Positions 14,934 to 39,104 of a stretch of 52,926 bases of DNA are shown in pieces (position 1 is the stretch's first letter; each line of letters opens with the position of its first letter). Source of the stretch: Candidatus Omnitrophota bacterium (GTDB lineage Bacteria > Omnitrophota > Gorgyraeia > Aquiviventales > Aquiviventaceae); contig JACPSQ010000035.1 of NCBI GenBank assembly GCA_016193195.1, positions 2,435 through 55,360 of the forward strand, given 5' to 3'. Position numbers and translations under genes: made by a program. The notes beneath the pieces are model-generated. The model had not been told where the DNA came from. It was given only the letters and a program-made list of their open reading frames with translations, and did no database searches.

Positions 14934-16217
14934 ATGCGCGACTCGCATTCGCAGGAGTGGCTCGCCCGCAGCCGCCAGGTGATTCCCGGTTGCACACAAA
15001 CGTTCAGCAAAGGTCCTACGCAGTTCGTGCAGGGCGCCTCGCCAGCCTTCCTCGTCCGCGGGCGCGGCAGTCACGTCTGGGACGTGGATGGCCAGGAGTA
15101 TCTCGATTACTCGATGGCCCTAGGGCCGGTCATTCTGGGATATCGCGATCCGGTCGTCACCAAGGCGGTGAAACGGCAACTAGAGTCTGGGACGATCTTT
15201 TCACTGCCACATCCACTTGAAGTCGAGGTCGCCGAACTGCTCACCCAGGTTGTCCCATGCGCCCAGATGGTGCGATTCGCCAAGAACGGCTCTGATGCGA
15301 CCGCGGGCGCGGTGAGACTCGCCAGGGCCGTGACAGGACGGGATCTCATCGCGTGCTGTGGCTACCATGGGAATCAGGACTGGTACATTGGGACGACCAC
15401 GCGCAATCGGGGCGTGCCCGAATCGGTTCGACGCTTGACCATCCCGTTTGTCTATAACGACATTGACAGTCTTGCGCGGATCTTCGCCGAGCATCCCCAC
15501 CAGGTTGCTGCGGTGATCATGGAACCGGTAGGCCTTGAGCCGCCGCGCGAGCAGTTTTTGGAACAGGTACGCGACCTGACGCATCGGGAAGGCGCGGTCC
15601 TCATCTTTGATGAAGTGCTGACAGGATTCCGCGTGGCGCTGGGTGGGGCGCAGGAGTACTTCGGCGTCACACCTGACCTGGCCTGCTTCGGCAAGGCCAT
15701 GGCGAACGGCTACCCCCTGTCAGCCGTGGTCGGACGACGGGAGATCATGGAAGCGTTTGAAGAGGTCTTCTTCTCGTTTACGTTCGGGGGGGAAGCGCTC
15801 TCGCTGGCCGCGGCGAAGGCGACGATCACAACGCTGCGCAGCCACGCGATCATTCCGCAGTTGTGGGAACATGGTCGTCGCCTTCAAGACGGATTCAACC
15901 GACTGGCGGCTCAGTTCGGTCTTGCGCAGCGCGTCGTCTGTGAGGGACTGCCGCCGCGGACGATGGTGAGCTTCACCGATGGGACCGGAGCTGAGTCGCT
16001 GCCAGTGAAGAGCTTGTTTCAACAGGAGTGTCTGACGCGCGGCGTGCTGTTTTCAGGAAGCCACAACCTGTGCGCCAGCCACACTCGGGAAGACGTGGAA
16101 CAGACCCTCCGGGTGTATCGGGAAGCGATGGCGGTCGTGGCAGAGGCCGTGGCGGCTGGCGATGTCCTGGAGCGGCTGCAGGGTACGCCGGTGCAGCCGG
16201 TCTTCCGTCGCGCCTAG
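14934..16217 (+). CDS. Class III (HemL/glutamate-1-semialdehyde aminomutase-like) PLP aminotransferase
   Basis: 'RGRGSHVWDVDGQEYLDYSMALGPVILGY', 'FDEVLTGFRVALGGAQEYFGVTPDLACFGKAMANGYPLSAVVGRREIM' (Lys in FGKAM). Confidence 0.9.
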   Translation: MRDSHSQEWLARSRQVIPGCTQTFSKGPTQFVQGASPAFLVRGRGSHVWDVDGQEYLDYSMALGPVILGYRDPVVTKAVKRQLESGTIFSLPHPLEVEVAELLTQVVPCAQMVRFAKNGSDATAGAVRLARAVTGRDLIACCGYHGNQDWYIGTTTRNRGVPESVRRLTIPFVYNDIDSLARIFAEHPHQVAAVIMEPVGLEPPREQFLEQVRDLTHREGAVLIFDEVLTGFRVALGGAQEYFGVTPDLACFGKAMANGYPLSAVVGRREIMEAFEEVFFSFTFGGEALSLAAAKATITTLRSHAIIPQLWEHGRRLQDGFNRLAAQFGLAQRVVCEGLPPRTMVSFTDGTGAESLPVKSLFQQECLTRGVLFSGSHNLCASHTREDVEQTLRVYREAMAVVAEAVAAGDVLERLQGTPVQPVFRRA

Positions 16218-16230
16218 CATCAGGTCATCC

Positions 16231-18115: not shown

Positions 18116-19234
18116 GTGATGGCGGTGGTGTTGTTTCGGACAGACGCTGCTCCTGCAGTTGGCCTCGGCCACCTGCGACGGTGCCTTTCGCTGGCGGCAG
18201 CGCTCCAACGGCAGGATGTGCGCAGTGTGTTTGTGGTCCCGGAGGATCGACAGGTTCGCCGGTGCGTCAGGGAGGCAGGGTGCAGCATCGAGATCGTGGA
18301 GCGTGTCACGGCGGGGGATGCCGTTGATCTGCAGCACGTGCTCCGTGCGGCAAGCCGCTCCGAGGCCGCCGCGGTGATCGTGGATTCCTACCAGATCGGT
18401 GCGGACTACCTGGAGGCGCTTCGGCAGGCAGGACTGTATGTCGCGGTCATTGATGATCTGGCAGCCATGGCCTTTCCGTGCCACGTGGTGGTCAACGGTG
18501 GGCCGCATGCGTGCCGGTTGCCGTACCGTTCGTCCTCCGGGGAAACCACGTTCTTGCTCGGTCCCTCCTATGCGTTGCTGGGTCCAGCATTCTGGAACGT
18601 TGGCCCTCGACCGGTGCGCCAGACCGTGCAGCATGTCCTGCTCACGCTGGGCGGGGCGGATCCTCATCACCTGATGCCGAGGCTGCTGGGCCTGCTCGAC
18701 GATCTCCCTGGCGAGTTTGGCGTCACGGCCGTGATTGGCCCATTCTTCCAGAACCGTCTTGAGGTTCAACATGTGGCCAAGCGGTGCCAACGAACGGTGA
18801 GGCTCGTTGATGCGCCGGCGTCCCTGCGTGACCTGATGCTCGAGGCGGACCTTGCTGTGTCGGCTGGCGGACAGACCTTGTTCGAGCTGGCGCGTGTGGG
18901 ATGTCCCGCCGTTGCCGTCAGGACCGCATCGAATCAGGTCGCTCAGCTACGGGCCTTTGTGGAGTCTGGAGCTATGCGCCTTGCAGGAGACGCCGGGGAT
19001 GCCCACGTGATGGCTGCCGTACGTGACAGCGTGGCCTCATTGGTGGGGGATCAGGGGGAACGAGGTCGCATGAGCCTGGCGGGCCGTCGGCTCGTCGACG
19101 GACGAGGCGCCCAACGGACCGCCGACGCGATTGCAGCGGGGATTCGGACGCGGCTGGCCGCGGCGATCAAGCGCAATGAGGTGGAGCACCGGCTCGAAGG
19201 GCGCATGGTCTCGCCGGTGTTTCGGACGGCGTGA
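18116..19234 (+). CDS. pseG: PseG-like UDP-2,4-diacetamido-2,4,6-trideoxy-beta-L-altropyranose hydrolase (GT28-C-like fold)
   Basis: 'VVLFRTDAAPAVGLGHLRRCLSLAAALQRQDV', 'VLLTLGGADPHHL', 'ADLAVSAGGQTLFELARVGCPAVAV'. The start is GTG 18116 or ATG 18119. Confidence 0.8.
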   Translation: MMAVVLFRTDAAPAVGLGHLRRCLSLAAALQRQDVRSVFVVPEDRQVRRCVREAGCSIEIVERVTAGDAVDLQHVLRAASRSEAAAVIVDSYQIGADYLEALRQAGLYVAVIDDLAAMAFPCHVVVNGGPHACRLPYRSSSGETTFLLGPSYALLGPAFWNVGPRPVRQTVQHVLLTLGGADPHHLMPRLLGLLDDLPGEFGVTAVIGPFFQNRLEVQHVAKRCQRTVRLVDAPASLRDLMLEADLAVSAGGQTLFELARVGCPAVAVRTASNQVAQLRAFVESGAMRLAGDAGDAHVMAAVRDSVASLVGDQGERGRMSLAGRRLVDGRGAQRTADAIAAGIRTRLAAAIKRNEVEHRLEGRMVSPVFRTA

Positions 19235-23057: not shown

Positions 23058-25034
23058 ATGAGGCCGGAGATCTTCATTGAGCGGTTGACCCACGCGCACC
23101 GACCCCTCATCGCGTGGTGGGTCCGGCGCGGGCATCGGGTCTGTGTCTTTGACTTTGACCACTGTGCGCGGCTGCGATCATTCGGGTGGCTGCGCAGGCT
23201 GCTGGACCAGGGCAAGGTCGAAACCATCTACGTGCCTTCGAGCTCGGTAGCCGACTCGCTGGCCATTGACACGGCCGAGCGGTTCTTTCCCGCTTTCTCG
23301 TCCCACCCGTTGGTTCGAGCGATGGGAAGGATCTTTGGGGAGCACGAAGCGGCCCCCGTGCTGAAGAAGGCGCTAGTGGAGAGTCTCTTTCGGTATTTCT
23401 ATATCAAGCAGTCCCTCACAGATCGGGCTCGAGGGGCATCGGGTCGGCAGGCGGCGATCGTCGTCTCATCCCTCTATTGGGCCTGGGAGGTGCGCCTGCG
23501 CGAGGTGGCCCGCGACGTGCCGACCCCAGCGCCCACGAGTTGCCCCTGGTGGGCTCGTGGGTATGACGCGGTGGCCAGAAGGATCCAGGACGTCCTGTGG
23601 TCTCTCGCCGTATGCGGGGGGATCCTGCTCCATGCGGGCTCGATCATCGTGGGGAGGATGCTGGCGAGATCCCAGCCGGCTCTGCAGCAGGCCGATCACG
23701 TCTTCGCGGTGGATTCGCCCTTCCAGGTGAAGTTCCAGGGGCCGCGGCGAGCCGACTTCTTGCTCGACCACCAGCAGGTGACGAAGCAGAACACGGTCTT
23801 TGTCGTGCACCGGCTTGGCGAGGGGCCCTGGATCCAGCAGGCCCGGTGCGCCGGCTATCGGCTGATTCGCCAGGCGGAGTTCGCCGATGTGCGGCATCCG
23901 TGGCGGCACATGCGTCAGCCGCCCCGCAGCGTGCGCCTGGGGCCCGCCCTGCGAGCCGGAGGCTGCCTGGCGGCGCACCCGTGGGCCGCCGGGTGGCTGG
24001 TGGACGCGGCCGGGCGTGGCCTGGTCGCCTACCTCACGAAGTCCGCCCTGCTGGAGCGGGTCAACTTTGTCAACTACGTCTATATGGACCAGGATCACCT
24101 GTCGCAGCAATGCCTGAATATCCTCATTCGAAAGCAGGGAGGTCAGAGCTGGAACTTCGCTTACGCGATCGGAGGCGGTTACCTCTATGGGAATGGGCAG
24201 GTACCGGGGCATCGCCAGCGGCGGCTCGCGTACCAGAACCCGGATCACTTTGTCGGCACGAGTCAGCGGATGACGCGCTACCATCAGGAGCACCGCCAGG
24301 GGGTCCGCGCATACCACGCCGTCGGGAACCTCTGGTCGCAGTCGGTGTCGCTTGCGGCGAGCGCGACGGACATCCGGCGGCTTCGGTCGGCCTGGTTTGG
24401 CGCTGCGGCCGATCAGGGCAGGGTGGTGGCGTGGTTTGACACCACCTTCATCGAAGGGGCCGGCTCCCCCAGCACCTATCATGAGGCGGTCGCCTGGTAC
24501 CGGGACATCTGGCGGATAGTGAGCGAGGACGAACGGTTGCTCGCGGTGATCAAGCCGTCAAAGGACGACGCCTGCTTCGTGGACGGCCGTTCCCAGCTCA
24601 TGCACCCGCTGGGCCAGTCGGTGATCGGGGAATGGGCGCGACTGAAGCAGCATCCGCGGGTGCATTTTGCGGGACATGCCATCGATCCTTCCCTCGTAAT
24701 TGCCGCCAGCGACCTGACCGTGACCTTTTGCTTTTCCTCGCCGACTGCCGAGGCGCTGGGGGCAGGCAAGCGGGCGATGTGGTATGAACCGGGCGAGCGC
24801 TGGCGGGATACCCTCTACGGGGCCGAGCCGCTGTTGGTCGCCCATGGGTATCCTGAGCTGCGCCGGCTCGTGGGCACGCTCCTCAACGACATGGACGATG
24901 AGGCGTATCGGCAGTTCCTTGAGAGGCGCGTTCGGGGTTTGGTCGAAGACTTCCTGGATGGGAACGGGCTCTCCAGGTTCCGTGAGCTGCTCGCCGACGC
25001 CGCGCGGCCGGCGGCCTGGAGCCCCCGCGCATGA
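23058..25034 (+). CDS. Hypothetical 658-aa protein, possible GT-B-like C-terminal domain
   Basis: A long ORF with the local codon bias. The only family-like feature I recognise is the C-terminal 'HPRVHFAGHAIDPSLVIAASDLTVTFCFSSPTAEALGAGKRAMWYEP', reminiscent of GT-B/capsule-type transferases. Confidence 0.7.
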   Translation: MRPEIFIERLTHAHRPLIAWWVRRGHRVCVFDFDHCARLRSFGWLRRLLDQGKVETIYVPSSSVADSLAIDTAERFFPAFSSHPLVRAMGRIFGEHEAAPVLKKALVESLFRYFYIKQSLTDRARGASGRQAAIVVSSLYWAWEVRLREVARDVPTPAPTSCPWWARGYDAVARRIQDVLWSLAVCGGILLHAGSIIVGRMLARSQPALQQADHVFAVDSPFQVKFQGPRRADFLLDHQQVTKQNTVFVVHRLGEGPWIQQARCAGYRLIRQAEFADVRHPWRHMRQPPRSVRLGPALRAGGCLAAHPWAAGWLVDAAGRGLVAYLTKSALLERVNFVNYVYMDQDHLSQQCLNILIRKQGGQSWNFAYAIGGGYLYGNGQVPGHRQRRLAYQNPDHFVGTSQRMTRYHQEHRQGVRAYHAVGNLWSQSVSLAASATDIRRLRSAWFGAAADQGRVVAWFDTTFIEGAGSPSTYHEAVAWYRDIWRIVSEDERLLAVIKPSKDDACFVDGRSQLMHPLGQSVIGEWARLKQHPRVHFAGHAIDPSLVIAASDLTVTFCFSSPTAEALGAGKRAMWYEPGERWRDTLYGAEPLLVAHGYPELRRLVGTLLNDMDDEAYRQFLERRVRGLVEDFLDGNGLSRFRELLADAARPAAWSPRA

Positions 25035-27449: not shown

Positions 27450-28441
27450 TGCTGCCAAACCCAGAGCTCGTGCAGCAGCTCTTTCAGGCGTACTATGCGA
27501 CTGAGCCAGCCCGTCAGGAGGCCTACGTCTCATCCCATTGGGCCGACTACAGCGGCCAGTTCGACGTCATCATGGACTCCGAGGGCAGCATCCGCAAGTT
27601 GGTGGGCAGAGGGTTTGGGGGCATGACCACGCGCAATCCGCTGGAGGTCCTGGTTCAGTATGCCGGCCACCTCTCGTATCTCTCCTGGCTCCCGAATCGC
27701 CGGGAGATCCTGGCCTTGATGCGGGTCGCTCAACCGGTCTGCCTGGCGATGGGGTTTTTCCTCTCCTTCGATGCCTTCAGGCAATTGTGTGCCTTGGCGC
27801 TCATCCGAGGGTGGATGAGTCCTGCGGTGCGTGCAAAACGTTTAACCGTCCTGATGATCGGGGACGGGTACGGATTCCTCTCGTCCATGGTGAAGACCCT
27901 CTACCCCAGGGCAACGCTCGTGCTGGTGGATATCGGCCGAACCCTCTTGTTCCAGAGCATCTACTGTCAGCGGGCGCACCCGACCGCCAGGCATTACGGG
28001 ATGACTGGGGATCGGCTCAACGAGGCCGCAACGCTGGCCGACCACGATTTCATCTATTGTCCGACGGAATACCTCGATGCCGTGCGGCCCTTGCGCTACG
28101 ACCTCGCGGTGGCGATCGCCTCCCTGCAGGAAATGAACGCCGCGACCGTGGAGCGCTACTTTCGGTTCTTGAGGGACCGTCTGCACGAGGACCATCTCTT
28201 CTACTGCTGCAACCGGGAATCCAAGGTCCTGCGGGGAGGCGAGGTCTCGACGTTCGCCGGGTATCCGTGGGATCCGCGCGATCGCCACCTTGTGGATGAG
28301 CGTTGTCCGTGGTACCAGTATGCCTGTTCCTGGCGGACGTGCGGCCCGGGGCCTCGCCTCTTCGGTCTGAGGGTTCCGTTCATCAACGCCTTTGACGGGC
28401 CGTTTCGGCATCGTCTTTCGATCCTAGCTCGGAGGTCGTGA
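27446..28441 (+). CDS. Putative SAM-dependent (sugar O-) methyltransferase
   Basis: ATG 27446 makes an ATGA overlap with the GT2 stop. The class I motif-I-like stretch is 'LTVLMIGDGYGFLSSMVKTLYPRATLVLVDIG'. The remainder is not confidently assignable. Confidence 0.55.
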   Translation: MMLPNPELVQQLFQAYYATEPARQEAYVSSHWADYSGQFDVIMDSEGSIRKLVGRGFGGMTTRNPLEVLVQYAGHLSYLSWLPNRREILALMRVAQPVCLAMGFFLSFDAFRQLCALALIRGWMSPAVRAKRLTVLMIGDGYGFLSSMVKTLYPRATLVLVDIGRTLLFQSIYCQRAHPTARHYGMTGDRLNEAATLADHDFIYCPTEYLDAVRPLRYDLAVAIASLQEMNAATVERYFRFLRDRLHEDHLFYCCNRESKVLRGGEVSTFAGYPWDPRDRHLVDERCPWYQYACSWRTCGPGPRLFGLRVPFINAFDGPFRHRLSILARRS

Positions 28442-30291
28442 TGGGGTCTTCGGGATTGATGATCGGCTCCCGTCTCGTTGACGAGCAGCACCCGCTCCTC
28501 ATCGCCGAGATCGCCTCGGCGCACGACGGTCAGGTGGAGCAGGCCTGTGCGCTGGTCCGGGCGGCGGCCGATGGGGCAGGCGAGGCCGTCAAATTTCAAC
28601 TGGTGATCGCGGAGGAATTGCTCACGCCCTCCCACCCGGACTTCGAGATGTTCCATCGCCTGGAACTCAAGCTGCAGGACTGGCAGACAGTGGTGGGGGA
28701 AGCGCGCCAACGGGGATTGATCTCGAGTGCCGATGTGTTCGGGGAGCAGAGCCTTCGGCTCGCCCAAGACCTCGGGATCCAGCTGCTGAAGATCCCCTCG
28801 TCCAGCTTGACGGATCCGGTCCTGGTTCCCCTCGTGGCCTCGCGGGGTGTGCCCACCCTGCTCTCTGTTGCGGGGGCGACGGAGGAGGAAATCGCGTGGG
28901 TGGTTGAGCAATTCCGGCAGGCCGGGCATCGCGCGTTTGTCCTGATCCACGGCTTTCAAGGCTTTCCGACCCCGCTGGCGGCGACGCACCTCAACAGGCT
29001 GTCTTGGTTGCGTCAGCGCTTTGCATGCCCTGTGGGACTTTCCGATCACCTCCCGGCCGACACGGCGGTCGCGCGACACCTGCCGCTTGTCGCGGTGGGG
29101 TTGGGCGCATCGGTGATTGAGAAGCACCTGACGCAAAGCCGCAGCCGGCGAGGTCCTGACTGGGTGTCCGCGCTCGAACCGGCTGAATTTGGGCAGCTTC
29201 AGGAGGCGCTGCGACACATAAGTGCGGCGTTCGGTCCTGAGGAGGGAGCGTGCTGGATGGAGGGGGAAGCGCGGTACCGCCGGCAGATGCGTCGGCAGCT
29301 CGTGGCTGGGCGGACCCTTCAGGCCGGCGAGATCCTCACCGCCGACAAGATCACTCAACGTCGCGCCATCGCGCCGGGCAGCATGGATCCCTGGTTTTTC
29401 CCTCGGCGGGTGGCGGGCAAGACCTTGCGGCGGTCGTTGTCACCGGATGAGGCGATCACGTGGGACTCGCTGAGCGATCCCCTCGTGGCGGTCCTGATCG
29501 CCGTCCGCATGAAGTCGGCCCGGCTTCCTCGCAAGGCGCTGGCGGATCTTGCCGGAAAGCCCGTCATCGAACGATTGGTGGAGCGGATGAAAACCGCCCG
29601 CCATCCCCAGCGGCTGGTGCTCTGCACGTCCACCCATGCCGATGACCGGGTCTTGGTGGAGCTGGCCAGGCGGTTGGGGATCGAGTGGGTCTGCGGGGAG
29701 GAAGAGGATGTCATGGCGCGATTCCTCCGCGCCGCCGAACAGACGCAGGCCGAGCTCATCGTGCGCGTGACAGGGGATAACCCGCTGACGGACGCCGAGA
29801 CGATGGATCGGATGATCGTCAGCCACCTCGAGCGCGACGTGGAGTACACCTACACGGACGACCTCCCCTTCGGCACCCGCCCCGAGATCATCTCCGTGGA
29901 AGCCCTGCGGCGCGTCCAGGCCTTGGCGGAAGATCCTGGGCAGACCGAGTACATGACCGCCTACCTCAAGCAGCCCGAGGCCGTGAAGTCCTACCGGTAT
30001 GTCGTGCAGGACGCGCAGCTGGTTCGACCCCACTACCGGCTCACCCTGGACACCCCTGAGGATCTCGCAGTGTTGCAGCAGATCTACGCGCGGTTCGGCC
30101 CCGACGGATCAACCGTGTCGTTGCGGGAGGTGATTCGGCTGCTGGATCAATCGCCGGAGCTGGTGGCGATGAATGCCGCCGTGCAGCAGCGTCAGGTCGC
30201 CGGCGTGATCAATGCGCGTCTGCGGGCTCCACGCGCGCCTGCGGAGGCAGGCGTCGTGGACATTGCAGGAGGGGATGAGGATGCTCGGTAG
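28438..30291 (+). CDS. Fusion: NeuB/SpsE-like synthase with SAF domain + SpsF/PseF-type cytidylyltransferase
   Basis: 'PLLIAEIASAHDGQVEQACALVRAAADGAGEAVKFQLV', 'LLSVAGATEEEI', 'VGLSDHLPAD', 'VIEKHLTQ', and SAF 'QLVAGRTLQAGEILTADKI'. From about 29480: 'VAVLIAVRMKSARLPRKALADLAGKPVIERLV', 'VCGEEEDVMARFL', 'VRVTGDNPL', 'RLTLDTPEDL'. Confidence 0.85.
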   Translation: MMGSSGLMIGSRLVDEQHPLLIAEIASAHDGQVEQACALVRAAADGAGEAVKFQLVIAEELLTPSHPDFEMFHRLELKLQDWQTVVGEARQRGLISSADVFGEQSLRLAQDLGIQLLKIPSSSLTDPVLVPLVASRGVPTLLSVAGATEEEIAWVVEQFRQAGHRAFVLIHGFQGFPTPLAATHLNRLSWLRQRFACPVGLSDHLPADTAVARHLPLVAVGLGASVIEKHLTQSRSRRGPDWVSALEPAEFGQLQEALRHISAAFGPEEGACWMEGEARYRRQMRRQLVAGRTLQAGEILTADKITQRRAIAPGSMDPWFFPRRVAGKTLRRSLSPDEAITWDSLSDPLVAVLIAVRMKSARLPRKALADLAGKPVIERLVERMKTARHPQRLVLCTSTHADDRVLVELARRLGIEWVCGEEEDVMARFLRAAEQTQAELIVRVTGDNPLTDAETMDRMIVSHLERDVEYTYTDDLPFGTRPEIISVEALRRVQALAEDPGQTEYMTAYLKQPEAVKSYRYVVQDAQLVRPHYRLTLDTPEDLAVLQQIYARFGPDGSTVSLREVIRLLDQSPELVAMNAAVQQRQVAGVINARLRAPRAPAEAGVVDIAGGDEDAR

Positions 30292-31351
30292 GTATTATCA
30301 AGAAGTGGGATGGCTCAGGCGCAGGGTCGCCGCGGCGAGAGAGTTGTGGAAGCGCCGATTCGAGTGGCGGTTTCTCCTGTACCGGGCGAAGTTTCATTGG
30401 TCGCATCGGCTGGATCTGCCCAGCGCCTTTCCCGCCCACCTCGATATCGAGACCACCGACGCGTGCAATCTCCGTTGCATCATGTGCGTGCAGGGCATCG
30501 GGGAAGGAGTCAAGGATACCGGCATGATCGAGATGGACTTTGCGAAACGGCTCATTGATGAAGGGGCTCGCAATGGCCTCTACTCGATCAAGTTCAACTG
30601 GCGGGGCGAACCCGCCCTTCATTCGGGATTGGCGGAGCTGGTGCGCTATGCCAAAGCGCGGGGGATCCTGGAGGTGCAATTCAACACCAACGGGATTCCC
30701 TACACGGAGTCCAAAATCAGGGAGCTGGTGTTGTCCGGCCTTGATCGGGTGATCTTCTCCATGGATGGCGCGTCGAAGGACACGTATGAGCGCATCCGCG
30801 TGGGAAGCAGCTACGACAAGCTCGTCGAGAACGTGAAGTTCTTTCATGCCATCCGGGAGGCCCTGGGCCGGGAACGGCCGTTCATCCGCATTCAGATGGT
30901 TCGGATGAAAGCCAACCAGCACGAGGTCGACCAGTTCGTGGAGATGTGGAAGCCCTTCGTGGACGACATTCGGATTGAGGATGTGTCGGACCGCGGCCAA
31001 GGTGAGCAACTCTCCGTGGGGGACTGGGTCACGACAGGCCGGAAGCGCTGCCCGCAACCCTGGCAGCGCATGGTCGTCTCTCGAGATGGGAAGGTCCTGC
31101 CGTGCTGTGCGGACTGGCATCGCGAGTTCATCATCGGGGACGCGACCCAGGAATCCCTGAAGGCGATCTGGCGTGGCAAGCGGATGGAGATGATGCGCCA
31201 GGTGCAGCGGGAGGTCCGGTTGGATCAGGTCAGCCCCTGTCGCCAGTGCTACGTCAAGGAGAGTTTTGTGTGGAAGCGGCGTCCCACGCCGGCGGCGAGC
31301 GAGCCGCCCGAGACCCCGCAGCCGCATGAGGACGCCGACGTCACGGTGTAA
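30275..31351 (+). CDS. Radical SAM enzyme with a partial SPASM/Twitch-like C-terminal Cys domain
   Basis: The CX3CX2C motif is 'ETTDACNLRCIMCVQG'. 'IKFNWRGEPAL' is the GGEP-like element. The C-terminus reads 'CPQPWQRMVVSRDGKVLPCCADW...SPCRQCY'. Start is ATG 30275 or 30281, the latter after 'ggagggga'. It overlaps the upstream stop. Confidence 0.85.
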   Translation: MRMLGRYYQEVGWLRRRVAAARELWKRRFEWRFLLYRAKFHWSHRLDLPSAFPAHLDIETTDACNLRCIMCVQGIGEGVKDTGMIEMDFAKRLIDEGARNGLYSIKFNWRGEPALHSGLAELVRYAKARGILEVQFNTNGIPYTESKIRELVLSGLDRVIFSMDGASKDTYERIRVGSSYDKLVENVKFFHAIREALGRERPFIRIQMVRMKANQHEVDQFVEMWKPFVDDIRIEDVSDRGQGEQLSVGDWVTTGRKRCPQPWQRMVVSRDGKVLPCCADWHREFIIGDATQESLKAIWRGKRMEMMRQVQREVRLDQVSPCRQCYVKESFVWKRRPTPAASEPPETPQPHEDADVTV

Positions 31352-31355
31352 CCCG

Positions 31356-32492
31356 ATGCCGACGGTGAGGATTGGACAGAAGCTGATCGGCCCCGGCCAA
31401 CCGGTGTTCGTCATTGCGGAGGCCGGGTGTAATCACGGATGCAATCTCCAGGTGGCGAAACGGATGGTCCGTCAGGCGGCGTGGGCCGGGGTGGATGCGA
31501 TCAAATTCCAGACCTACAAAGCCGAGCTGCTGGCGACGCGGACCGCCCCGACGTACTGGAAGCGGACGCCGGGTGCCCCGCGAACCCAATTTGAATTCTT
31601 CAAGCAGTTGGATCATTTCGATCGTGCGGACTACGCGGCGTTGGCGGCGGAGTGCCGCCGCGCCGGTCTGCTCTTTTTATCGACGCCGTGGGATTTCCAC
31701 AGCGCGGATATGCTTGATGAGCTCGGGGTGCCGGCCTTCAAGATCGGTTCCGCCGATCTGACCTACCTGCCGCTCATCCGACACTGCGCTAGCAAGGGAA
31801 AGCCCATCCTGCTCTCAACCGGCGCGGCGACGATCGAAGAGATTGAGGAGGCGGTCCGGACGGTCCGAGCCGTCGGGAACCGCCAGGTGATCCTGTTACA
31901 CTGCATCCTGGCCTATCATACGCTGCCTCACGATGTGCATCTCGCGATGATCGGAGAGCTGCAGCGCCGGTTTCCGGACTATCCGGTGGGATTTTCGGAT
32001 CATACGATTGCGGATGAACACCTGACGATCCAGACCGCTGCGGTCGCGCTGGGGGCCTGCGTGGTTGAGAAGCACTATACCTTAAACAAGCGTGCCCCTG
32101 GAAACGACCACTGGCACTCCCTGGAGCCGCGTGAGTTCAGACAGATGATCGCTAACGCTCAGCTCGTGCAAGCGGCGATGGGGCGCAGTGGTCCACGGGT
32201 GCCGCTGCCGTGCGAGCGACCCGCGAGACGGTTTGCCCGTCGCAGTCTCGTGGCGCTGCATGACATCCCCAAAGGCTCCGTCATCACGGCCTCCGATCTG
32301 ACCTGCAAGCGGCCTGGGACCGGCATTTCACCAGGACAGCTCGACCGGGTGGTCGGAGCACGAGCCAAGCGAACGATTCTCGAGGACACGGTGATCACAT
32401 GGTCCATGGTGGATGGATGCCATCCCACACGCCTCCCGGTGCGTGGCGGGACATCTGAGGGAGCGAGGCGCCGTGAGCCCATTGCCGCTTGA
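31356..32492 (+). CDS. NeuB-family nonulosonic acid synthase with SAF domain
   Basis: I prefer ATG 31356 ('MPTVRIGQKLIGPGQPVFVIAEAGCNHGCNLQVAKRMVRQAAWAGVDAIKFQTY'). Also 'LLSTGAATIEEI', 'VGFSDHTIAD', 'VVEKHYTL', and SAF 'SLVALHDIPKGSVITASDLTCKRPG'. Confidence 0.85.
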   Translation: MPTVRIGQKLIGPGQPVFVIAEAGCNHGCNLQVAKRMVRQAAWAGVDAIKFQTYKAELLATRTAPTYWKRTPGAPRTQFEFFKQLDHFDRADYAALAAECRRAGLLFLSTPWDFHSADMLDELGVPAFKIGSADLTYLPLIRHCASKGKPILLSTGAATIEEIEEAVRTVRAVGNRQVILLHCILAYHTLPHDVHLAMIGELQRRFPDYPVGFSDHTIADEHLTIQTAAVALGACVVEKHYTLNKRAPGNDHWHSLEPREFRQMIANAQLVQAAMGRSGPRVPLPCERPARRFARRSLVALHDIPKGSVITASDLTCKRPGTGISPGQLDRVVGARAKRTILEDTVITWSMVDGCHPTRLPVRGGTSEGARRREPIAA

Positions 32493-35400
32493 GATCGATC
32501 CCCCGCACGTCACCATTCATCTCCAAGGCGGACGGCAGATCGGCATGGGGCATGTCGTCCGGATGCTCTGGCTGGCCCAGAGCCTCACGGCGCGGGGGCT
32601 GGCGGTGGAGATGCTCCTCCGAGGAGAGCCGGAAGCCGCCGCCATGATTCGGCAGGCGGGCTTCCCGGTGCAGGCCTATTCTGCCGGAGCGTCTGCCGTG
32701 GTCACGGTGGAGCGTTACCTCGACCAGCCGGGTCCGCAACCCTCGGTCTGGGTCAACGATTGTCTGACGGTGAGCCCCTCGGTGCACGCGGCGCTTCAGC
32801 GTCGAGCGATTCCCATCGTTTCGCTGGATGACGAGGGCCGAGGCCTGAGCCGTCTGGATCTTGTCGTCAATGCCATGCCCGCGTTCTGGCAAGAGGCGCT
32901 TCCCACAGGGGCGCAGATGTATCAAGGCCCCGAGTACATGATTCTCAATCCGCTGGTCAAGGTGTATCATGACCGGCCCAGACCAATCCGCACGCGGCCC
33001 AGCCAGGCCGTGGTGACGCTGGGGGGCAGCGATCCGCATGGGGTGATCTTCAACGTGCTCCGGGCTCTCGCGACCATGCCCTCCGCGCTTGAATGGCATG
33101 TGTTTGTCGGGCCGCTCTTTGCCCATCGTCGCGCGCTCGACCGGTGGCAGAAGCGCCTGGCTGGGCAGGTGTGTCTCCGCTGGCATGACGGGCAGTCCGA
33201 AGTGATCCCGACGTTTGCCCAAGCGGACGTGGCGATCTGCGCGAGCGGCCACACCCTCTTTGAAATGCTGAGTGTGGGCACGCCGGTCTTGGCAATCGCG
33301 AACGCCAGGCACGAAATCGTCAACGGCAGATATTTTGCCTCACTGGGTGCCTGCCATTTCCTTGGGCTGCATACCGCTGTGACCCCAGGTCGCATCGGGC
33401 AGGCGGTTCGTCAATTACTGGCGGATCCAACCCAGCGGGCGCGTCTCTCGCAGCGGGGCCAGTCCTACATCGATGGACGTGGGGCTGAGCGGGTGACGGA
33501 GCTGCTCGAACGTCTCGCCAGGCGTCCCGTGTCGGCCAGACGCGTGGTGGAGGCGGTGGAGCAACAGGCTCACGCGGCAGCTCCGACTGGACCGACGGCC
33601 CGGGAAGACGGACACCCCGGCGTGTTGCTGTGCGATCGGTTGGAGCCTCTGATGAGGCTCTCGAGGCGGCATGGGCTCTCGCAGGCGCGATTCATTGTGC
33701 TGTCAGAGACTTCGGAACACGCTGCCATCCGCGGATGGCTTCGTGAGCGGCTCGGGGCGGAGGAACTGCCCTATGTGGAATTGTCGCGGGCGCGCCGGCA
33801 GGCATTCCAGCCTCGGTATATCGAGTTCATTGGGCGGTTCAACCGGACGCACCGCTCGCCGTTTTGGTTGGCGATGCCGTTTACGGCCAAGAGCATGCTC
33901 TCAACGGGGTTGTGCCGCAATACGTTCCAGTTCCTCCTCATCGTGGAGTTGCTCCAGACCAGCGACCGGCCACTGATCGTGATCACTCATAACCGGACCA
34001 TGGCTGACCAGGTGGTGTTATGGGCACGGGTCCAGCCCCGATGGGTGTGCAATGCGGTCCGTGGCCGTTCGGTCCTGAAACGCCTCTTCAAACGTTTCAC
34101 CCCGCTGGCGATCCTTGTGGCGATGATTCGGACCTCGGTGGTGTGGGTCCTGAGCAGGCGATTCCGGCTGGACGGGGACCGGTGGCGTGATGCCACCATC
34201 GTGGTGACGACATTTCCGAATTCGTCCATCCAGCTTCCGGTCTACCGAGAAGCCTATTTTGGGTCCCTGCCGGCCTCCTTGACTCAACACGGCCAGCGGG
34301 TGGTGCTGTTTGCCTTGTATGCGGAGCGCGCGCTGTCGCACATCCTGGCGCTGCGCCGTGTCAGCCAAGGCCTGCCGGTGGTCCCGCAGGAGGCCTACCT
34401 GACCTGGCCAGATCTCTTGGCCTGTGGCGTTCGGGCCCTCATACAGTGGATGAAGCGGTTTCCGTATCGTGAGCCGGTGCAGATCGATGGGATCAGCGTG
34501 GACGTCTTGGTCGAGCGGGAAATCGCTGAGAGCTGCCAGTCGAGGAGCCTCTTCTGGCATTTGTGCATCGCCGCGGCGGCTCGACGGCTGGGTCAGCGCC
34601 TTGCCCCTGCCAGGTGCTTGTATCCGTTCGAGAACCGCGCGTGGGAGAAAATGTTCCTGATCGGCCTGCGGGAAGCCTCGCCCCATACCGAGACGATTGG
34701 CTATCAACATACCGTCTTTACCTTCGCGCATACGAACCTGTTCTTCGGGGAAGGCGAGGCGAGACTCACGCCGCTCCCCAATTGCATTCTCACGGCTGGA
34801 GAGGTCACGAAGCAGCGTCTTGAAGAGCATGGTCGGTATCCGGACGGTTTGTTGAGGCTGGGGTGTGCCTTGTATCAACGGCAACCGCAATCGCTGGAGC
34901 GCCGGACGTCCCGTCCGGTTCAGCTCACGAATCTCTTGGTCGCGCTCAGCAACGACCGAGAGGAGTATGTCCGCGTGTTGCAGTTTTTGCGGGAAGCGCT
35001 GGCGGACCTCCACGGCTATCAGATTCGGCTCCGCCCGAACCCGGGGCTTGGCGTCCGGCTCCTGGAGGAGGCCCTGGCGACGGTCCGCCACCCCGCAGGG
35101 GGCCGCTACGATGTCAGCCGGACATCCTTGCCTGAAGACCTGCGCTGGGCTCACGTCGTGCTCTACGCCTCCTCCTCGGTCGCCCTCGCTGCGCTCAGCC
35201 ATGGGATCCCGGTCATCTTTGTGGATGTCGGGAAATTCCTCGATCCTGATCCGTGCCTGGCGATGCACGATCTCAAGTGGGCGGTGGACGAGCCTTCAGC
35301 GTTGCATCCGACCCTCCGCCGGATCGCGGCCCTCCCCGATGAGATGTTTGAGCTCCAACAACGGCGCGCCCTCGCGTATGTTGAGCGCTATTTCCCTGCG

Positions 35401-35514
35401 CCCACCGAGGCGCGGCTCCAGGCCTTCAGGCAGGCGGAGGACGCACGCGACCCCGACGTGGCTGAGGCGGCGGCTGACGCGCGACCGGAAGCTGGGCTGA
35501 CCACGGTTGCATAA
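32473..35514 (+). CDS. Fusion: PseG-like (GT28-C-type) domain + ~650-aa region of unknown function
   Basis: GTG 32473 is in frame with the ORF-track start 32413, which lies deep inside neuB. The PseG-like part is 'VTIHLQGGRQIGMGHVVRMLWLAQSL', 'VVTLGGSDPHGV', 'ADVAICASGHTLFEMLSVGTPVLAI'. After about aa 400 I see no motif I can assign, except the GT-B-like 'HVVLYASSSVALAALSHGIPVIFVD'. Confidence 0.75.
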   Translation: MSPLPLEIDPPHVTIHLQGGRQIGMGHVVRMLWLAQSLTARGLAVEMLLRGEPEAAAMIRQAGFPVQAYSAGASAVVTVERYLDQPGPQPSVWVNDCLTVSPSVHAALQRRAIPIVSLDDEGRGLSRLDLVVNAMPAFWQEALPTGAQMYQGPEYMILNPLVKVYHDRPRPIRTRPSQAVVTLGGSDPHGVIFNVLRALATMPSALEWHVFVGPLFAHRRALDRWQKRLAGQVCLRWHDGQSEVIPTFAQADVAICASGHTLFEMLSVGTPVLAIANARHEIVNGRYFASLGACHFLGLHTAVTPGRIGQAVRQLLADPTQRARLSQRGQSYIDGRGAERVTELLERLARRPVSARRVVEAVEQQAHAAAPTGPTAREDGHPGVLLCDRLEPLMRLSRRHGLSQARFIVLSETSEHAAIRGWLRERLGAEELPYVELSRARRQAFQPRYIEFIGRFNRTHRSPFWLAMPFTAKSMLSTGLCRNTFQFLLIVELLQTSDRPLIVITHNRTMADQVVLWARVQPRWVCNAVRGRSVLKRLFKRFTPLAILVAMIRTSVVWVLSRRFRLDGDRWRDATIVVTTFPNSSIQLPVYREAYFGSLPASLTQHGQRVVLFALYAERALSHILALRRVSQGLPVVPQEAYLTWPDLLACGVRALIQWMKRFPYREPVQIDGISVDVLVEREIAESCQSRSLFWHLCIAAAARRLGQRLAPARCLYPFENRAWEKMFLIGLREASPHTETIGYQHTVFTFAHTNLFFGEGEARLTPLPNCILTAGEVTKQRLEEHGRYPDGLLRLGCALYQRQPQSLERRTSRPVQLTNLLVALSNDREEYVRVLQFLREALADLHGYQIRLRPNPGLGVRLLEEALATVRHPAGGRYDVSRTSLPEDLRWAHVVLYASSSVALAALSHGIPVIFVDVGKFLDPDPCLAMHDLKWAVDEPSALHPTLRRIAALPDEMFELQQRRALAYVERYFPAPTEARLQAFRQAEDARDPDVAEAAADARPEAGLTTVA

Positions 35515-35517
35515 CTC

Positions 35518-36267
35518 ATGCAGGACCTGCACGACAGAGCCAAGGTGGAAATCCAGGCCCGCTACGATCGGATGGCCAAGGCCGAACTGACCGGCGCAGG
35601 GTCGTTTGAGCCGGTGGGCCGAGCCAAACACTACTTCCGGGCCCGCAAGCTCCAGGCCGCCCTCGCCTTGGGGTCGTTTCCCGCAGGGGGGCGGCTCCTG
35701 GAGATTGGCTGCTCCGTGGGCCAGTTTTCGTTTCCGCTGGCCAGGTTGGGCTATCAGGTCTGCGGGATGGACTTGTCTTCGAACTCGGTCGAGGTGGCCA
35801 CGCAGCGGGCCCAGGCCCAAGAGCTGACCGGGCTGACGTTCGTGGTCGGCGATGCCGAGCTCCTGAGCCGGTTTCCCACGGACGGATTTGACGGGATCGT
35901 GTCGTTTTCCACCCTGCGCTATGTCAACAATCTCTCGAACGCCCTCGTTGAGGTGTACCGGGTGCTGAAGCCGGGCGCCAGAGCGGTCATCGACTTCCCG
36001 AACCGGTGGTGCCCGTGGTTCTACCTGAAGCCGTGGCTGGGCAGCGAGCCTCACCCGCACGACCACTGGTTCTCGGAGGGCGCCCTGCGGAAGCTGTTCG
36101 CGCAGGCGGGCTTCCGCGACGTGCAGGTGCGGCACCTGCTCTTCACCCCCACGGTGGCGCCCGACCGCGCGCTCCGTGTCTTTCAAGGGATGGACTGGAT
36201 CGGTGAACGGCTCCCCCTCGTCCGGCGGCTGGCGGGCATCATCATGGTGGGCGCGAGGAAGCCATGA
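35518..36267 (+). CDS. Class I SAM-dependent methyltransferase
   Basis: 'GRLLEIGCSVGQFSFPLARLGYQVCGMDLS', 'FDGIVSFSTLRYV', 'VYRVLKPGARAVIDFPN'. Confidence 0.85.
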   Translation: MQDLHDRAKVEIQARYDRMAKAELTGAGSFEPVGRAKHYFRARKLQAALALGSFPAGGRLLEIGCSVGQFSFPLARLGYQVCGMDLSSNSVEVATQRAQAQELTGLTFVVGDAELLSRFPTDGFDGIVSFSTLRYVNNLSNALVEVYRVLKPGARAVIDFPNRWCPWFYLKPWLGSEPHPHDHWFSEGALRKLFAQAGFRDVQVRHLLFTPTVAPDRALRVFQGMDWIGERLPLVRRLAGIIMVGARKP

Positions 36268-39104
36268 GACCGGTGGACGTGCTCCTGACCTGTGATATCC
36301 ACACCCACATGTCTGGGAGCGAGCCGGTCCGGCGTGACCTGGTGGAGGCCCGCCGGCTCCTGCAGGCCGTGGGGGTGCGGTGCACCTTTTTCTTTCCCGC
36401 GCGGTCGGCGGAGCTGCTGCGGGATCAAGTGGAGGCCCTGCGCGCGGAAGGGCATGAGATCGGCTGCCACGGCTTGACGCATGACCCGTCGGAGAACTAC
36501 GGCCGGCTGCCGCGTCAGGCCCAAGAGACGCTGCTGACGGAGGCCACAAGGCGGTTGACCGGCGTGCTAGGGCAGCCGCCCGTCAGCTTCCGAGCGCCGG
36601 TGTTCAAGCTCTCGCGCGACACTATCCGCGTGCTCGAGGCGCTGGGGTACCGCACCGATTTGTCGGTGACCGCGCAGCGGCTCGGCGTCTTCGGCTCAGA
36701 CCTCTATGACATGAAGCCGTTCTTCGCCCCACGGCGACCGTATCATCCGACCCTCTCCAATCCCTTCAGGAAAGGCGCGGCGCAGATCTGGGAGATTCCG
36801 GTGTCGGCCTGGCTGCTGCCCTTCCTGTCCAACACGGAGCGGTTGTGCGGCCTGCGATTCATGCAATGGTTCTTTCGAGCGCTGTATATCGAGGCGCGGA
36901 CGACGGGCAAGCCCATCGTCTTCATGTTCCATGCGGAGGACTTGAACGCGGCGCGCGGGGCGCAGGAACCGTGGCGCTTATCCTGGCGGGATTTCATCCC
37001 GTCGAGGACCTTCGGGTTCCAGTTCCGCCATGCGCTCTTGGAGCGCGACTGGCGTCGGGTCCAACAAGACCTGGTGGCCCTGCTGCGGTTCATGGCCGGA
37101 TTTCCGGCGGTGCGATTTCTGACGGTGAACGAGTACCTCCCCCTGCTCGAAGACGGACACGCGGTTCCGGAGGCGACCCCGACACCCGCGGCTGTGGCCG
37201 TGGCGGCGGCGTCAGCCGCGGCGCCTGCGGCGCGCCGCGAGGAGCCGCGGAAGGACATCCTCTGCATCTCCTCCATTGATTGGGACTTTATCTGGCAGGG
37301 CCACCAGGAGGTCATGGCGACCTTGGCGGCGCAGGGGAACCGGGTGCTCTTCATCGAGAACACCGGGGTCCGCGCCCCCACCCTGCACGATCTTCCACGC
37401 CTGACACATCGCGTCGTGAACTGGGTGCGCAGCGTCAAGGGATTCCGCCAGGAGCGGGAGCGCCTGTTCATCTACTCGCCCCTGGTCCTCCCGTTTCCCT
37501 ATTCCACCCCAGCCCGGTGGCTCAATCGCAGCCTGATGCTCCGGGCGCTCCAGCGGTGGATGCGCGCCACGGGGTTTCACCGGCCGCTCCTCTGGACGTT
37601 TCTGCCGACCCCGCTCACCATTGATCTGATCCACGAGCTGGATCCTGAGCTGACCGTCTATTACTGTATTGATGACCTCGCCTCAAGCTCCTCAGCCGCC
37701 CGCCGGATCAGCCGGAGCGAAACCCGCCTCTTCAAGATGGCGGACGTGGTGTTCGTGACCTCTGAGAAGCTCCAGCAGCACGCCGCGCGCTTCAACGACC
37801 GTGTCTCCCTGTTCCCCTTCGGCGTGGATTTTGAGGCCTTCGAGCGGGTTCGCGAGGAGGCCGATGAGATCCCGCCAGATCTGCGCGTGCTGCCGCGGCC
37901 TGTCATCGGGTACGTCGGGGGCATCCACCAATGGGTGGATCAAGACCTGCTGGTCGCCGTCGCCAAGGCGATGCCACAGGCCAGCGTGGCGCTCGTCGGG
38001 CCGCTGCAGACCGACGTGTCGAAGCTGGCGAGGCAGCCCAACATCCACCTGCTCCGCGGGCGTCCTCATGCGGAGCTGCCGCGGTACATCAAGGGGTTCG
38101 ATGTCGGGATCATCTCCTACCGGTTGAGCGACTACACGGCCCATGTCTACCCGACCAAGCTCAATGAATACCTCGCCATGGGCATTCCCGTGGTGGCGAC
38201 CGACCTGCCGGAGATCCGTCGCTTCAATGCGGAGCACGGGGGGATTGTCAGCGTTGCACGGGATGCCAAGGAGTTCGTGCACGCAATCCGCCATGTCCTT
38301 GCCTCCAGTTCCCCTGAGCTCATCCGGCGGCGGATCGATGTCGCGCGGCAGAATAGCTGGCAGTCGAGGATCGCCCAGATGTCAGCCCTCATCAACGAGG
38401 CGATGGAGCGGCGGCGCGCCGAACCGGAGGCGTGGGAGCAGAAGCTCCGCCGGGTCTATCGGGCGGCCCGGCGCCGGATCCTGAAGGCGGCCATCGCCGC
38501 CACCCTGGCCTACCTGGTGGTGTTCCAAAGCCCCGTGGTGTGGTGGATGGCGGAGCCGCTGCGATTGGCGGCGCCCGCCAGGCCCGCGGATGCCATCGTC
38601 GTGCTGGGGGGCGGGGTGGGGGAGTCAGGCAAAGCCGGCCAGGGCTATCAGGAGCGCGTCAAGCACGCCGTGGACCTGTACCGGGCGGGGCAGGCACCGA
38701 GCCTCATCTTCTCCTCCGGCTATACCTTCATCTTCCAGGAGACGGAGGTGATGCGGGAGCTTGCGATCGCCGAGGGCGTGCCCGCCTCGGCAATCAGCCT
38801 GGAGACCCGCGCGGCGAACACCTTCGAGCAGGCGCGTGCGGTGTCGCGGATGCTCCAGGGGGAGCCACGCGGGTCGATCCTCCTGGTGAGCTCGCCCTTC
38901 CACATGCGGCGCGCCGTGTGGACCTTTCGCAGGGTCGCCCCCTCGATCGAGGTGATTCCCGCCCCCATTCCTGAGAGCCAGTTTTACGCGCATGCCCGCG
39001 GCGCCAGCCTCCGGCAGATGTGGGGCATCTTCCACGAGTATGTCGGCATCGTCTATTACTGGGTGAAGGGGTGGATCCGGTTGACGCCGGCGGCCGGAGG
39101 ATGA
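36264..39104 (+). CDS. Triple-domain protein: polysaccharide deacetylase-like + group-1 glycosyltransferase + DUF218 (YdcF/ElyC-like)
   Basis: Deacetylase-like: 'VRCTFFFPARSAELL...EGHEIGCHGLTHD'. An Ala-rich linker sits around 37190-37240. GT: 'ILCISSIDWDFIWQGHQEVMATLAAQGNRVLFIENTG', 'IGYVGGIHQWVDQDLL', 'PTKLNEYLAMGIPVVATDLPE'. One TM segment is 'AIAATLAYLVVF'. DUF218: 'ADAIVVLGGGV...LIFSSGY...ETRAANTFEQA...ILLVSSPFHMRRA'. Confidence 0.85.
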   Translation: MRPVDVLLTCDIHTHMSGSEPVRRDLVEARRLLQAVGVRCTFFFPARSAELLRDQVEALRAEGHEIGCHGLTHDPSENYGRLPRQAQETLLTEATRRLTGVLGQPPVSFRAPVFKLSRDTIRVLEALGYRTDLSVTAQRLGVFGSDLYDMKPFFAPRRPYHPTLSNPFRKGAAQIWEIPVSAWLLPFLSNTERLCGLRFMQWFFRALYIEARTTGKPIVFMFHAEDLNAARGAQEPWRLSWRDFIPSRTFGFQFRHALLERDWRRVQQDLVALLRFMAGFPAVRFLTVNEYLPLLEDGHAVPEATPTPAAVAVAAASAAAPAARREEPRKDILCISSIDWDFIWQGHQEVMATLAAQGNRVLFIENTGVRAPTLHDLPRLTHRVVNWVRSVKGFRQERERLFIYSPLVLPFPYSTPARWLNRSLMLRALQRWMRATGFHRPLLWTFLPTPLTIDLIHELDPELTVYYCIDDLASSSSAARRISRSETRLFKMADVVFVTSEKLQQHAARFNDRVSLFPFGVDFEAFERVREEADEIPPDLRVLPRPVIGYVGGIHQWVDQDLLVAVAKAMPQASVALVGPLQTDVSKLARQPNIHLLRGRPHAELPRYIKGFDVGIISYRLSDYTAHVYPTKLNEYLAMGIPVVATDLPEIRRFNAEHGGIVSVARDAKEFVHAIRHVLASSSPELIRRRIDVARQNSWQSRIAQMSALINEAMERRRAEPEAWEQKLRRVYRAARRRILKAAIAATLAYLVVFQSPVVWWMAEPLRLAAPARPADAIVVLGGGVGESGKAGQGYQERVKHAVDLYRAGQAPSLIFSSGYTFIFQETEVMRELAIAEGVPASAISLETRAANTFEQARAVSRMLQGEPRGSILLVSSPFHMRRAVWTFRRVAPSIEVIPAPIPESQFYAHARGASLRQMWGIFHEYVGIVYYWVKGWIRLTPAAGG

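Follow-up and report, generated by a model that had tools for sequence, protein, structure and literature searches.

The N-terminal half of the protein considered here is related to PseG, which in Campylobacter jejuni (Cj1312; PDB 3HBM/3HBN) is the UDP-2,4-diacetamido-2,4,6-trideoxy-beta-L-altropyranose hydrolase, with His17 as its catalytic residue; the fold of PseG is MurG-like. PseG is often fused to other enzymes of its pathway, and its fusions with the PseH GNAT domain (~500 amino acids), with SpsF or with a formyltransferase are common. The C-terminal half belongs to the NCBIfam family TIGR04326 (O_ant_LIC13510), for which a literature search returned no paper naming the family and a single passing mention of "surface carbohydrate biosynthesis protein". 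In the Kdo transferase WbbB, as in sialyltransferases, the histidine of an HP motif protonates the leaving CMP phosphate, and an H265A substitution severely compromises WbbB (PMC9587256); KpsC conserves this catalytic histidine and has the HP motif in common with CMP-sialic-acid transferases (PMC10148158). Here we describe a gene at 32473..35514 on the + strand of a 52,926-nucleotide stretch (the window, meaning the whole of the DNA analysed) of contig JACPSQ010000035.1 from Candidatus Omnitrophota bacterium (assembly GCA_016193195.1), in which a PseG-like module and a TIGR04326-family module form one polypeptide. It is one genuine gene that arose by fusion of two neighbouring genes, and its TIGR04326 module lacks residues that are nearly invariant in that family.

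The fusion joins known kinds of parts in a rare but understandable way and represents no new kind of system, as both halves fall into catalogued families. The new elements are the rare fusion itself, the reading of TIGR04326 as a GT-B, HP-motif family associated with cytidylyltransferases, and the decayed donor signature in the fusion clade.

Origin of the fusion gene and its PseG-like module

The open reading frame (ORF) runs uninterrupted from 32413 to 35514 and encodes 1033 amino acids from the first ATG (32413), from which residues are numbered throughout, or 1013 from a GTG at 32473. The GTG is the more likely start, because it aligns with the start of the closest full-length orthologue, P0003, and is preceded by a purine-rich GGGAG/GAGG sequence. 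Third-position GC is high along the entire ORF, and the coding bias is unbroken across the junction of the modules. A preliminary description of this DNA, made from the sequence alone, had called the same single ORF, and all four of the peptides it quoted occur in the translation; the stop codon or frameshift that might have separated two genes is absent from the assembled sequence, and the same fusion is found at 59% identity in another metagenome (P0003).

Among 5.8 billion clustered proteins, P0003 (1003 amino acids, 59% identity over 96% of the length) is the only protein besides that of the window with this architecture. The P0003 fusion is present in two assemblies with a linker sequence that differs from the window's, and its neighbours are those of the window (radical SAM/SPASM, 80% identity; NeuB, 75%). 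An N-terminal extension was found only in P0003 among the best 150 of 2190 representatives of the C-terminal family, and an open frame of more than 725 codons only in the window among 36 matches in 301 genomes of the phylum. Like the fusions of PseG with the PseH GNAT domain, SpsF or formyltransferase, the protein unites PseG with another enzyme of the same sugar pathway in one polypeptide, whereas its partner is a TIGR04326 GT-B module, a combination found just twice. The suggestion in the preliminary description that such coupling is unusual therefore holds for this architecture, but not for the joining of PseG to other pathway enzymes.

The ancestral state appears to survive in related genomes. 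In a genome of the same order (G025) the cassette is conserved, with upstream partners at 61%, 79% and 74% identity, and the PseG-like gene (383 amino acids, 54% identity) ends at its own stop codon and is followed by a TIGR04326-like gene in another frame; a groundwater contig (L068) carries the same split pair with a 32-nucleotide overlap. The 7.3-kb contig L001 has the radical SAM/SPASM (80%) and NeuB (75%) genes in the same order, with no CMP-transferase match on the contig. In the window, the former gene boundary is marked by an Ala/Pro/Arg-rich linker between the modules (residues 371-405; 33523..33627, +), where both G025 and L068 have a stop codon and a change of frame. This linker is 18% identical to that of P0003, cannot be aligned between the fusions and has a neutral omega of 1.44, in comparison with 0.11 for the N-terminal module (against P0003) and 0.19 (against P0003) or 0.28 (against the closer locus L009) for the C-terminal module, values that indicate purifying selection on both. 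These comparisons suggest a rare and recent fusion of adjacent genes that are still separate in two other lineages. Genes in this region are tightly packed, the NeuB-type gene 31266..32492 overlapping the fusion gene by 20-80 nucleotides depending on the start chosen (up to 32413..32492) and many 4-nucleotide overlaps occurring elsewhere in the array, so that fusion by loss of a stop codon would be easy.

That the fusion is an artefact of sequencing or assembly, with two genes in the cell as in G025, is very improbable. The source bin is indeed fragmented (1.04 Mb, 64% complete, 129 contigs) and close lineages carry the split form, but an orthologue at 59% identity has the same fusion, with a different linker, in two assemblies, no frame change is needed over ~3.1 kb, and the coding bias continues across the junction.

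The C-terminal module has also been combined with other partners. Its closest relative, P0004 (L009:2111-4918; 79% identity), has no PseG-like part on its 6.7-kb contig and carries instead an extra C-terminal SAM methyltransferase domain; the genes downstream of it are syntenic with those of the window and the upstream genes are not. Two further relatives call for comment. P0002, a 620-residue gene call starting at Met414, comes from a 2.1-kb contig and was therefore not taken as evidence of a separate C-terminal gene. In a genome of the same family (G012:C4:15760-17793; L016), two TGA codons lie within a 713-residue stretch matching the C-terminal module; an intact ORF of ~611 residues is present there, and the TGA codons are probably upstream of its true start.

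The N-terminal module (residues 21-370; 32473..33522, +) is predicted to be a diverged GT-B UDP-sugar hydrolase of the PseG type. As the preliminary description had proposed, it is PseG-like: in a hidden Markov model (HMM) search, TIGR03590 (PseG) matches residues 33-299 with an E-value of 5.7e-29 and 101.6 bits, below the curated equivalog cut-off of 153.55 bits. When the window's own PseG (18116..19234, +; 185.4 bits, above that cut-off) is aligned with 3HBM, His17 falls in a GxGH motif, and in the three-way alignment the fused module has GMGH at this place, its histidine being His47 (codon 32551..32553, +); the catalytic histidine whose conservation had been in question is thus present. A histidine occupies this position in 97% of a PseG alignment of 34 sequences. 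A literature search on PseG His17 found nothing. The module retains every residue that is at least 90% conserved in that alignment (G44, G46, H47, R50, L54, A55, D116, D139, D140, G172, L178, T202, G204, G205, G233, D272, G279, E284, P291, G318, D354, G357 and R360). An AlphaFold2 (AF2) model built from the 34 sequences (pLDDT 93.0, pTM 0.90) has a GT-B fold, and its top Foldseek matches are MurG enzymes (TM 0.64-0.77), with TM-scores of 0.64-0.70 on the query. With canonical PseG the module therefore has in common the MurG-like fold, the GxGH..R motif and all family-wide conserved residues, as well as a locus with PseB, PseC, GNAT and NeuB/PseI-type synthases. It differs from canonical PseG in its low identity (24-31%; 24-26% to the window's true PseG), its sub-cut-off score, its fusion to a 630-residue module and its position next to a synthase whose NeuB/Leg-type score exceeds its score as PseI. 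It also falls into a tiny clade of paralogues (52-63% identity; the window, P0003, P0155 and P0156), beyond which the next matches are ordinary PseG proteins at ~31%. In Pfam the N-terminal module gave only sub-threshold matches to GT-B C-terminal domains and the C-terminal module none, and a search of PDB sequences with the whole protein returned weak GT1 matches to residues 267-367 and nothing for the C-terminal part.

We read the N-terminal module as a presumably intact UDP-sugar hydrolase whose substrate is likely to differ somewhat from that of canonical PseG. It might instead be a true glycosyltransferase of the MurG/GT28 kind, so that two tandem transferase-fold modules would build two consecutive linkages. 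The score below the PseG cut-off, the MurG transferases among the best structural matches and the presence of a bona fide PseG in the same locus all fit such a role, but we consider it unlikely: every PseG-conserved residue is kept, including the catalytic histidine and the DD pair, the fold of PseG is itself MurG-like, and the conserved gene order places the module directly after a synthase of the NeuB type, an enzyme that requires a free sugar.

The TIGR04326 family and its putative CMP-sugar chemistry

The C-terminal module (residues 406-1010; 33628..35442, +) comprises an extra alpha/beta subdomain (~residues 401-590) followed by a GT-B fold (~residues 595-1005), and is followed by an acidic, Ala-rich tail (35443..35514, +) that is predicted to be disordered (pLDDT below 50 for the last residues). 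The preliminary description had found no assignable motif in this region of ~650 residues, which does not stand, and had likened it to a "surface carbohydrate biosynthesis protein" family, which proved correct: TIGR04326 matches residues 552-983 (E 8.9e-17, 60.7 bits), and the family has sharp motifs and a confidently modelled GT-B fold. The curated TIGR04326 cut-off of 250 bits is not reached in any of the 301 genomes of the phylum, where the maximum is 249.2 bits. A phmmer search of 1.84 billion representative proteins with residues 401-1033 gave 2190 clusters at E <=1e-3 and 322 at E <=1e-30, almost all of them standalone proteins of ~600 amino acids that align end to end; the best standalone relative (E 4.6e-128) covers residues 4-605 of the query. 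The window's copy thus has the full ~600-residue homology, the three-part architecture and the YPFEN..WEK and GYQH motifs of TIGR04326, and differs from the family in its score far below the cut-off and in its fusion to a PseG-like module, almost all members standing alone.

The AF2 model of the module, built from 105 sequences (pLDDT 93.1, pTM 0.93), consists of the extra alpha/beta subdomain (approximately the first 190 residues) and two Rossmann-like halves. Foldseek matched it in the PDB to hundreds of GT-B enzymes (CalG4, NeuC, MurG, BshA, WecB and WaaA) with probability 1.0 and E-values of 3e-9 and weaker, with TM-scores that reach only 0.3-0.4 for the query and 0.5-0.6 for the targets; the model thus points to a GT-B fold of which no close relative has been solved. 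Half of the family members compared (40 of 80) weakly match Pfam DUF6716 ("putative glycosyltransferase"), a few match GT4-type models, and 5 of the 80 weakly match Capsule_synth; the window's module has no match, even a weak one, to the Pfam glycosyltransferase models.

The family alignment is marked by the motifs YPFEN..WEK, GYQH, E....PLPD, CALRQ, IRPHP, Y.SSTV.LEAL..G.PVI and DP. When the family profile was compared with PDB sequences, the best, marginal matches were the KpsC beta-Kdo transferases (E 0.08-0.1 over ~80 residues), with the family stretch "iiiRpHP...VlYvsSTvalEAl..G.PVi" aligned to "VKVHP...VSSQ.GFE.L..G" of KpsC. Gene neighbourhoods point in the same direction. Within 20 kb surveyed around each of 20 TIGR04326-like genes in further genomes of the phylum, where neighbouring ORFs were clustered, a CTP_transf_3 cytidylyltransferase (the CMP-Kdo/CMP-NeuAc synthetase family) lies no more than 10 kb away in 18. 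Other recurrent neighbours, counted over 23 clustered loci (the 20 sampled plus L004, L015 and L016), are GT2 (15), SAM methyltransferase (13), radical SAM/SPASM (12, nine of them among the 20), 2-hydroxyacid dehydrogenase (11) and HAD phosphatase (8). Because RPHP and SST..E show a marginal alignment with the KpsC HP motif and CTP_transf_3 is found in 18 of 20 loci, the TIGR04326 family is probably one of CMP-sugar-dependent transferases whose range extends beyond nonulosonic acids. Specificity for nonulosonic acids was considered and rejected, as a NeuB neighbour occurs in only one of the 20 loci. Of the earlier suggestion of a nonulosonic-acid transferase family found beside Pse genes, the transferase fold is thus retained, but the typical neighbours are CMP-type cytidylyltransferases, and NeuB is a rare one.

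At the level of the family, TIGR04326 resembles KpsC/KpsS (GT107), WbbB (GT99) and the sialyltransferases of GT38, GT52 and GT80 in its modified GT-B fold, in an HP motif that comes between the second strand of the C-terminal Rossmann domain and an SS/ST..E helix, and in genes that adjoin CMP-type cytidylyltransferases. It differs from them in that the similarity in sequence is marginal (E ~0.08 over 80 residues) and in that neither an Asp nucleophile nor a motif of the QXXXKW type was identified. The window's copy departs further from these HP-motif transferases in having NP in place of HP, its sequence being RPNP where the family has RPHP.

The genes that recur around TIGR04326-like genes form a cassette of CTP_transf_3, radical SAM/SPASM, SAM methyltransferase, 2-hydroxyacid dehydrogenase, HAD phosphatase and GT2 (the 20 Omnitrophota loci L047-L066, and G000:C77, which is L067). 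Such a gene set points to an undescribed pathway in which a radical SAM enzyme contributes a step and the product is a CMP-activated sugar or acid.

A gene elsewhere in the window, 23058..25034, encodes a PFTS-motif protein (TIGR04417, E 4e-11) in which "KQHPRVHF" is followed by FCFSSPTAEALGAGK near the C-terminus, the same HP / SS..EAL.G pattern that is seen in TIGR04326 and KpsC. It may be a CMP-sugar transferase, and possibly the working one of this locus. The pairwise comparison with the fusion gene proposed in the preliminary description gave no significant similarity, and membership of a common family was rejected (BLASTP E 1.1; hhalign probability 1%, with only the SS..EAL.G helix aligned).

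Substitutions in the donor-side half of the fused module

The acceptor-side motifs of the fused module are preserved: YPFENRAWEK (E740, N741, E745) and GYQH (Q765, H766) lie at 34630..34710 (+), and E782 is intact as well. The donor-side signature is not. Tyr821 (TAT, 34873..34875) replaces the arginine of CALRQ, and Asn876 (AAC, 35038..35040) replaces the histidine of RPHP, the motif that aligns with HP of KpsC; each of these family residues is present in 104 of 105 aligned members, the window's protein being the only one without either. Ser922 and Ala926 (35176..35190) stand for the Thr and Glu of SST..LEA, and His914 and Asn790 each replace an Asp. At 32 columns conserved in at least 90% of the other 104 sequences, the window deviates at 6, compared with a median of 1 for the family. 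The corresponding counts are 0 for the split orthologue in G025, 4 for P0003 (L, E, Y821 and Asp for Glu) and 6 for P0004, which has Ser for His, Ala for Thr and Thr for Glu at the window's sites. In the window, P0003 and P0004, respectively, position 876 is therefore Asn, His and Ser, position 922 Ser, Thr and Ala, and position 926 Ala, Asp and Thr, while Tyr821 is found in all three. The common Tyr821 together with divergence at the other three positions looks like a constraint released after the change from Arg to Tyr. When the window is compared with L009, the donor-side half has an omega of 0.40, as against 0.22 for the acceptor-side half, 0.27 for the extra subdomain and 0.20-0.23 for the two downstream genes. 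A second, more distant paralogue on contig C77 keeps both the Arg and the HP motif, and lies in a cassette typical of the phylum (HAD, CTP_transf_3, 2-hydroxyacid dehydrogenase and GT2).

The transferase site of the window's copy is thus probably degenerate or rewired, with a putative loss of activity. The preliminary description had offered a transferase or a scaffold as candidates for this region, and the scaffold gains weight because the near-invariant Arg and the HP-motif His have been lost. As a whole, the reading towards which we lean, with a confidence slightly better than even, is that neighbouring genes were fused to give an active PseG-type hydrolase and a TIGR04326 module in which HP-motif chemistry has been lost or altered and which is under selection as a folded part. 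By this reading, two adjacent genes of a nonulosonic-acid cassette would have become joined in a compact genome with several such fusions at the locus. The N-terminal module would cleave a derivative of 2,4-diamino-2,4,6-trideoxyhexose from its UDP carrier and so supply the adjacent NeuB-type synthase, in a second branch alongside the canonical Pse pathway, whose genes lie upstream. The C-terminal module would descend from GT-B enzymes with CMP-activated sugar donors, as the RPHP, SST..E and CALRQ motifs and the gene neighbours suggest. Decay of its donor signature would have begun with the replacement of Arg by Tyr, followed by the replacement of His by Asn, Thr by Ser and Glu by Ala. HP-motif transfer chemistry has probably been lost or greatly altered in the module, which purifying selection nevertheless maintains as a folded part, most plausibly to bind an acceptor or to hold pathway enzymes together.

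Several points weigh against this interpretation. To our knowledge, no member of TIGR04326 has been characterised, and the link of the family to CMP-sugar transferases comes from a marginal profile match (E ~0.08) and gene neighbourhood. The location of the lost residues in the donor pocket is putative. Three of the 104 ordinary family members also deviate at five or more of the near-invariant columns. The omega values for individual sub-domains come without confidence intervals, and that of the donor half, 0.40, still denotes constraint. The donor-side residues P877, Y918, S921, G931, P933, D946 and P947 are kept, which fits an active enzyme with altered chemistry. Finally, the sequence is a consensus from a metagenome bin.

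Some of these points favour a different view, which we regard as possible but doubtful: the C-terminal module may still be an active transferase for the CMP-nonulosonic acid of the cassette, with a rewired leaving-group site in which, for example, Tyr821 makes the phosphate contact in place of the Arg/His pair, making the protein a bifunctional hydrolase and final transferase. Purifying selection acts throughout the module, the acceptor-side motifs and most donor-side motif residues remain, the gene directly follows synthase and cytidylyltransferase genes, and Tyr821 is conserved in all three members of the clade, as would be expected of a new functional residue. The sialyltransferase CstII contacts the CMP phosphate with tyrosines rather than a histidine. 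However, positions 876, 922 and 926 differ among three close relatives, which looks like drift rather than a new fixed solution, and the donor half has the highest omega. The window's copy also fails to match the Pfam glycosyltransferase models even weakly, while half of its relatives match DUF6716, and mutation of the HP histidine severely compromises the related transferase WbbB (PMC9587256).

Returning to the loss or alteration of HP-motif chemistry that we favour, a more specific pair of proposals may be put forward jointly, although only tentatively, as we doubt that both hold: the TIGR04326 module of the small clade would be a pseudo-glycosyltransferase, folded and under selection but catalytically silent, that serves as an acceptor-binding or assembly scaffold, and the wider family would be new HP-motif CMP-sugar transferases. 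Overall, the preliminary description was borne out in the PseG-like N-terminal part, its histidine, the family named and the rarity of the architecture, and was not in the motif-less C-terminal region, the specificity for nonulosonic acids and the unusualness of PseG fusions in general.

The surrounding locus and its meaning

The window is a very dense surface-glycan locus. It contains a complete pseudaminic-acid set consisting of PseB (8388), PseC (9484), a formyltransferase-PseI fusion (16162; PseI 473 bits), the PseG paralogue of the fused module described above and a GNAT (20405), along with genes for a B12 radical SAM enzyme, an aminotransferase, an AsnB-like protein, the PFTS-motif protein, a flippase, a GT2 and an O-methyltransferase. 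The cassette partners directly upstream of the fusion gene (28438..32492, +) are a fusion of a NeuB-like and a CMP-type cytidylyltransferase domain (28438..30291), a radical SAM/SPASM protein (30212..31351) and a NeuB-type synthase (31266..32492) that scores 337 bits as NeuB and 259 as PseI, so that the order of the cassette is NeuB/cytidylyltransferase, radical SAM/SPASM, NeuB, PseG-like and TIGR04326-like. Downstream lie a methyltransferase and a deacetylase-GT4-DUF218 fusion. A scan of 28-40 kb for promoters and terminators found nothing above chance, and the fusion gene is therefore placed within a long co-directional, operon-like array.

Four genes of the NeuB synthase family lie in one 20-kb stretch (12772..14931, 16162..18102, 28438..30291 and 31266..32492), two of which have cytidylyltransferase domains as fusion partners and one a formyltransferase. 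Multi-domain fusions are unusually frequent in this locus, and they include the 946-residue deacetylase-GT4-DUF218 protein (36264..39104). The cytidylyltransferase half of 28438..30291 and the radical SAM/SPASM protein 30212..31351 match different parts of TIGR04321 ("spiro-SPASM protein"); proteins of that family thus combine both functions, a hint that the substrate of the radical SAM enzyme is the CMP-sugar.

If the module of the small clade is indeed a pseudo-glycosyltransferase, it has acquired different catalytic domains, namely a hydrolase of the PseG type in the window and in P0003 and a SAM methyltransferase in P0004, and such a scaffold would physically organise a nonulosonic-acid pathway. 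The accompanying proposal, if true, would make TIGR04326 (~2000 clusters) a new HP-motif family of transferases for CMP-sugars. The catalogue of transferases for CMP-activated sugar acids, including sugars of the pseudaminic and legionaminic types, is poor. The fusion serves as a "Rosetta stone" that ties the large TIGR04326 family to the nonulosonic-acid pathway, while the family motifs and cytidylyltransferase neighbours provide a concrete, testable proposal for the function of the family, and the decayed copy of the window and the canonical split orthologue of G025 are naturally matched for tests of which residues are required in the family. In other respects the locus of this uncultured Omnitrophota bacterium encodes ordinary surface-glycan biosynthesis, and the main value of the fusion is the handle that it gives on an uncharacterised family of transferases.

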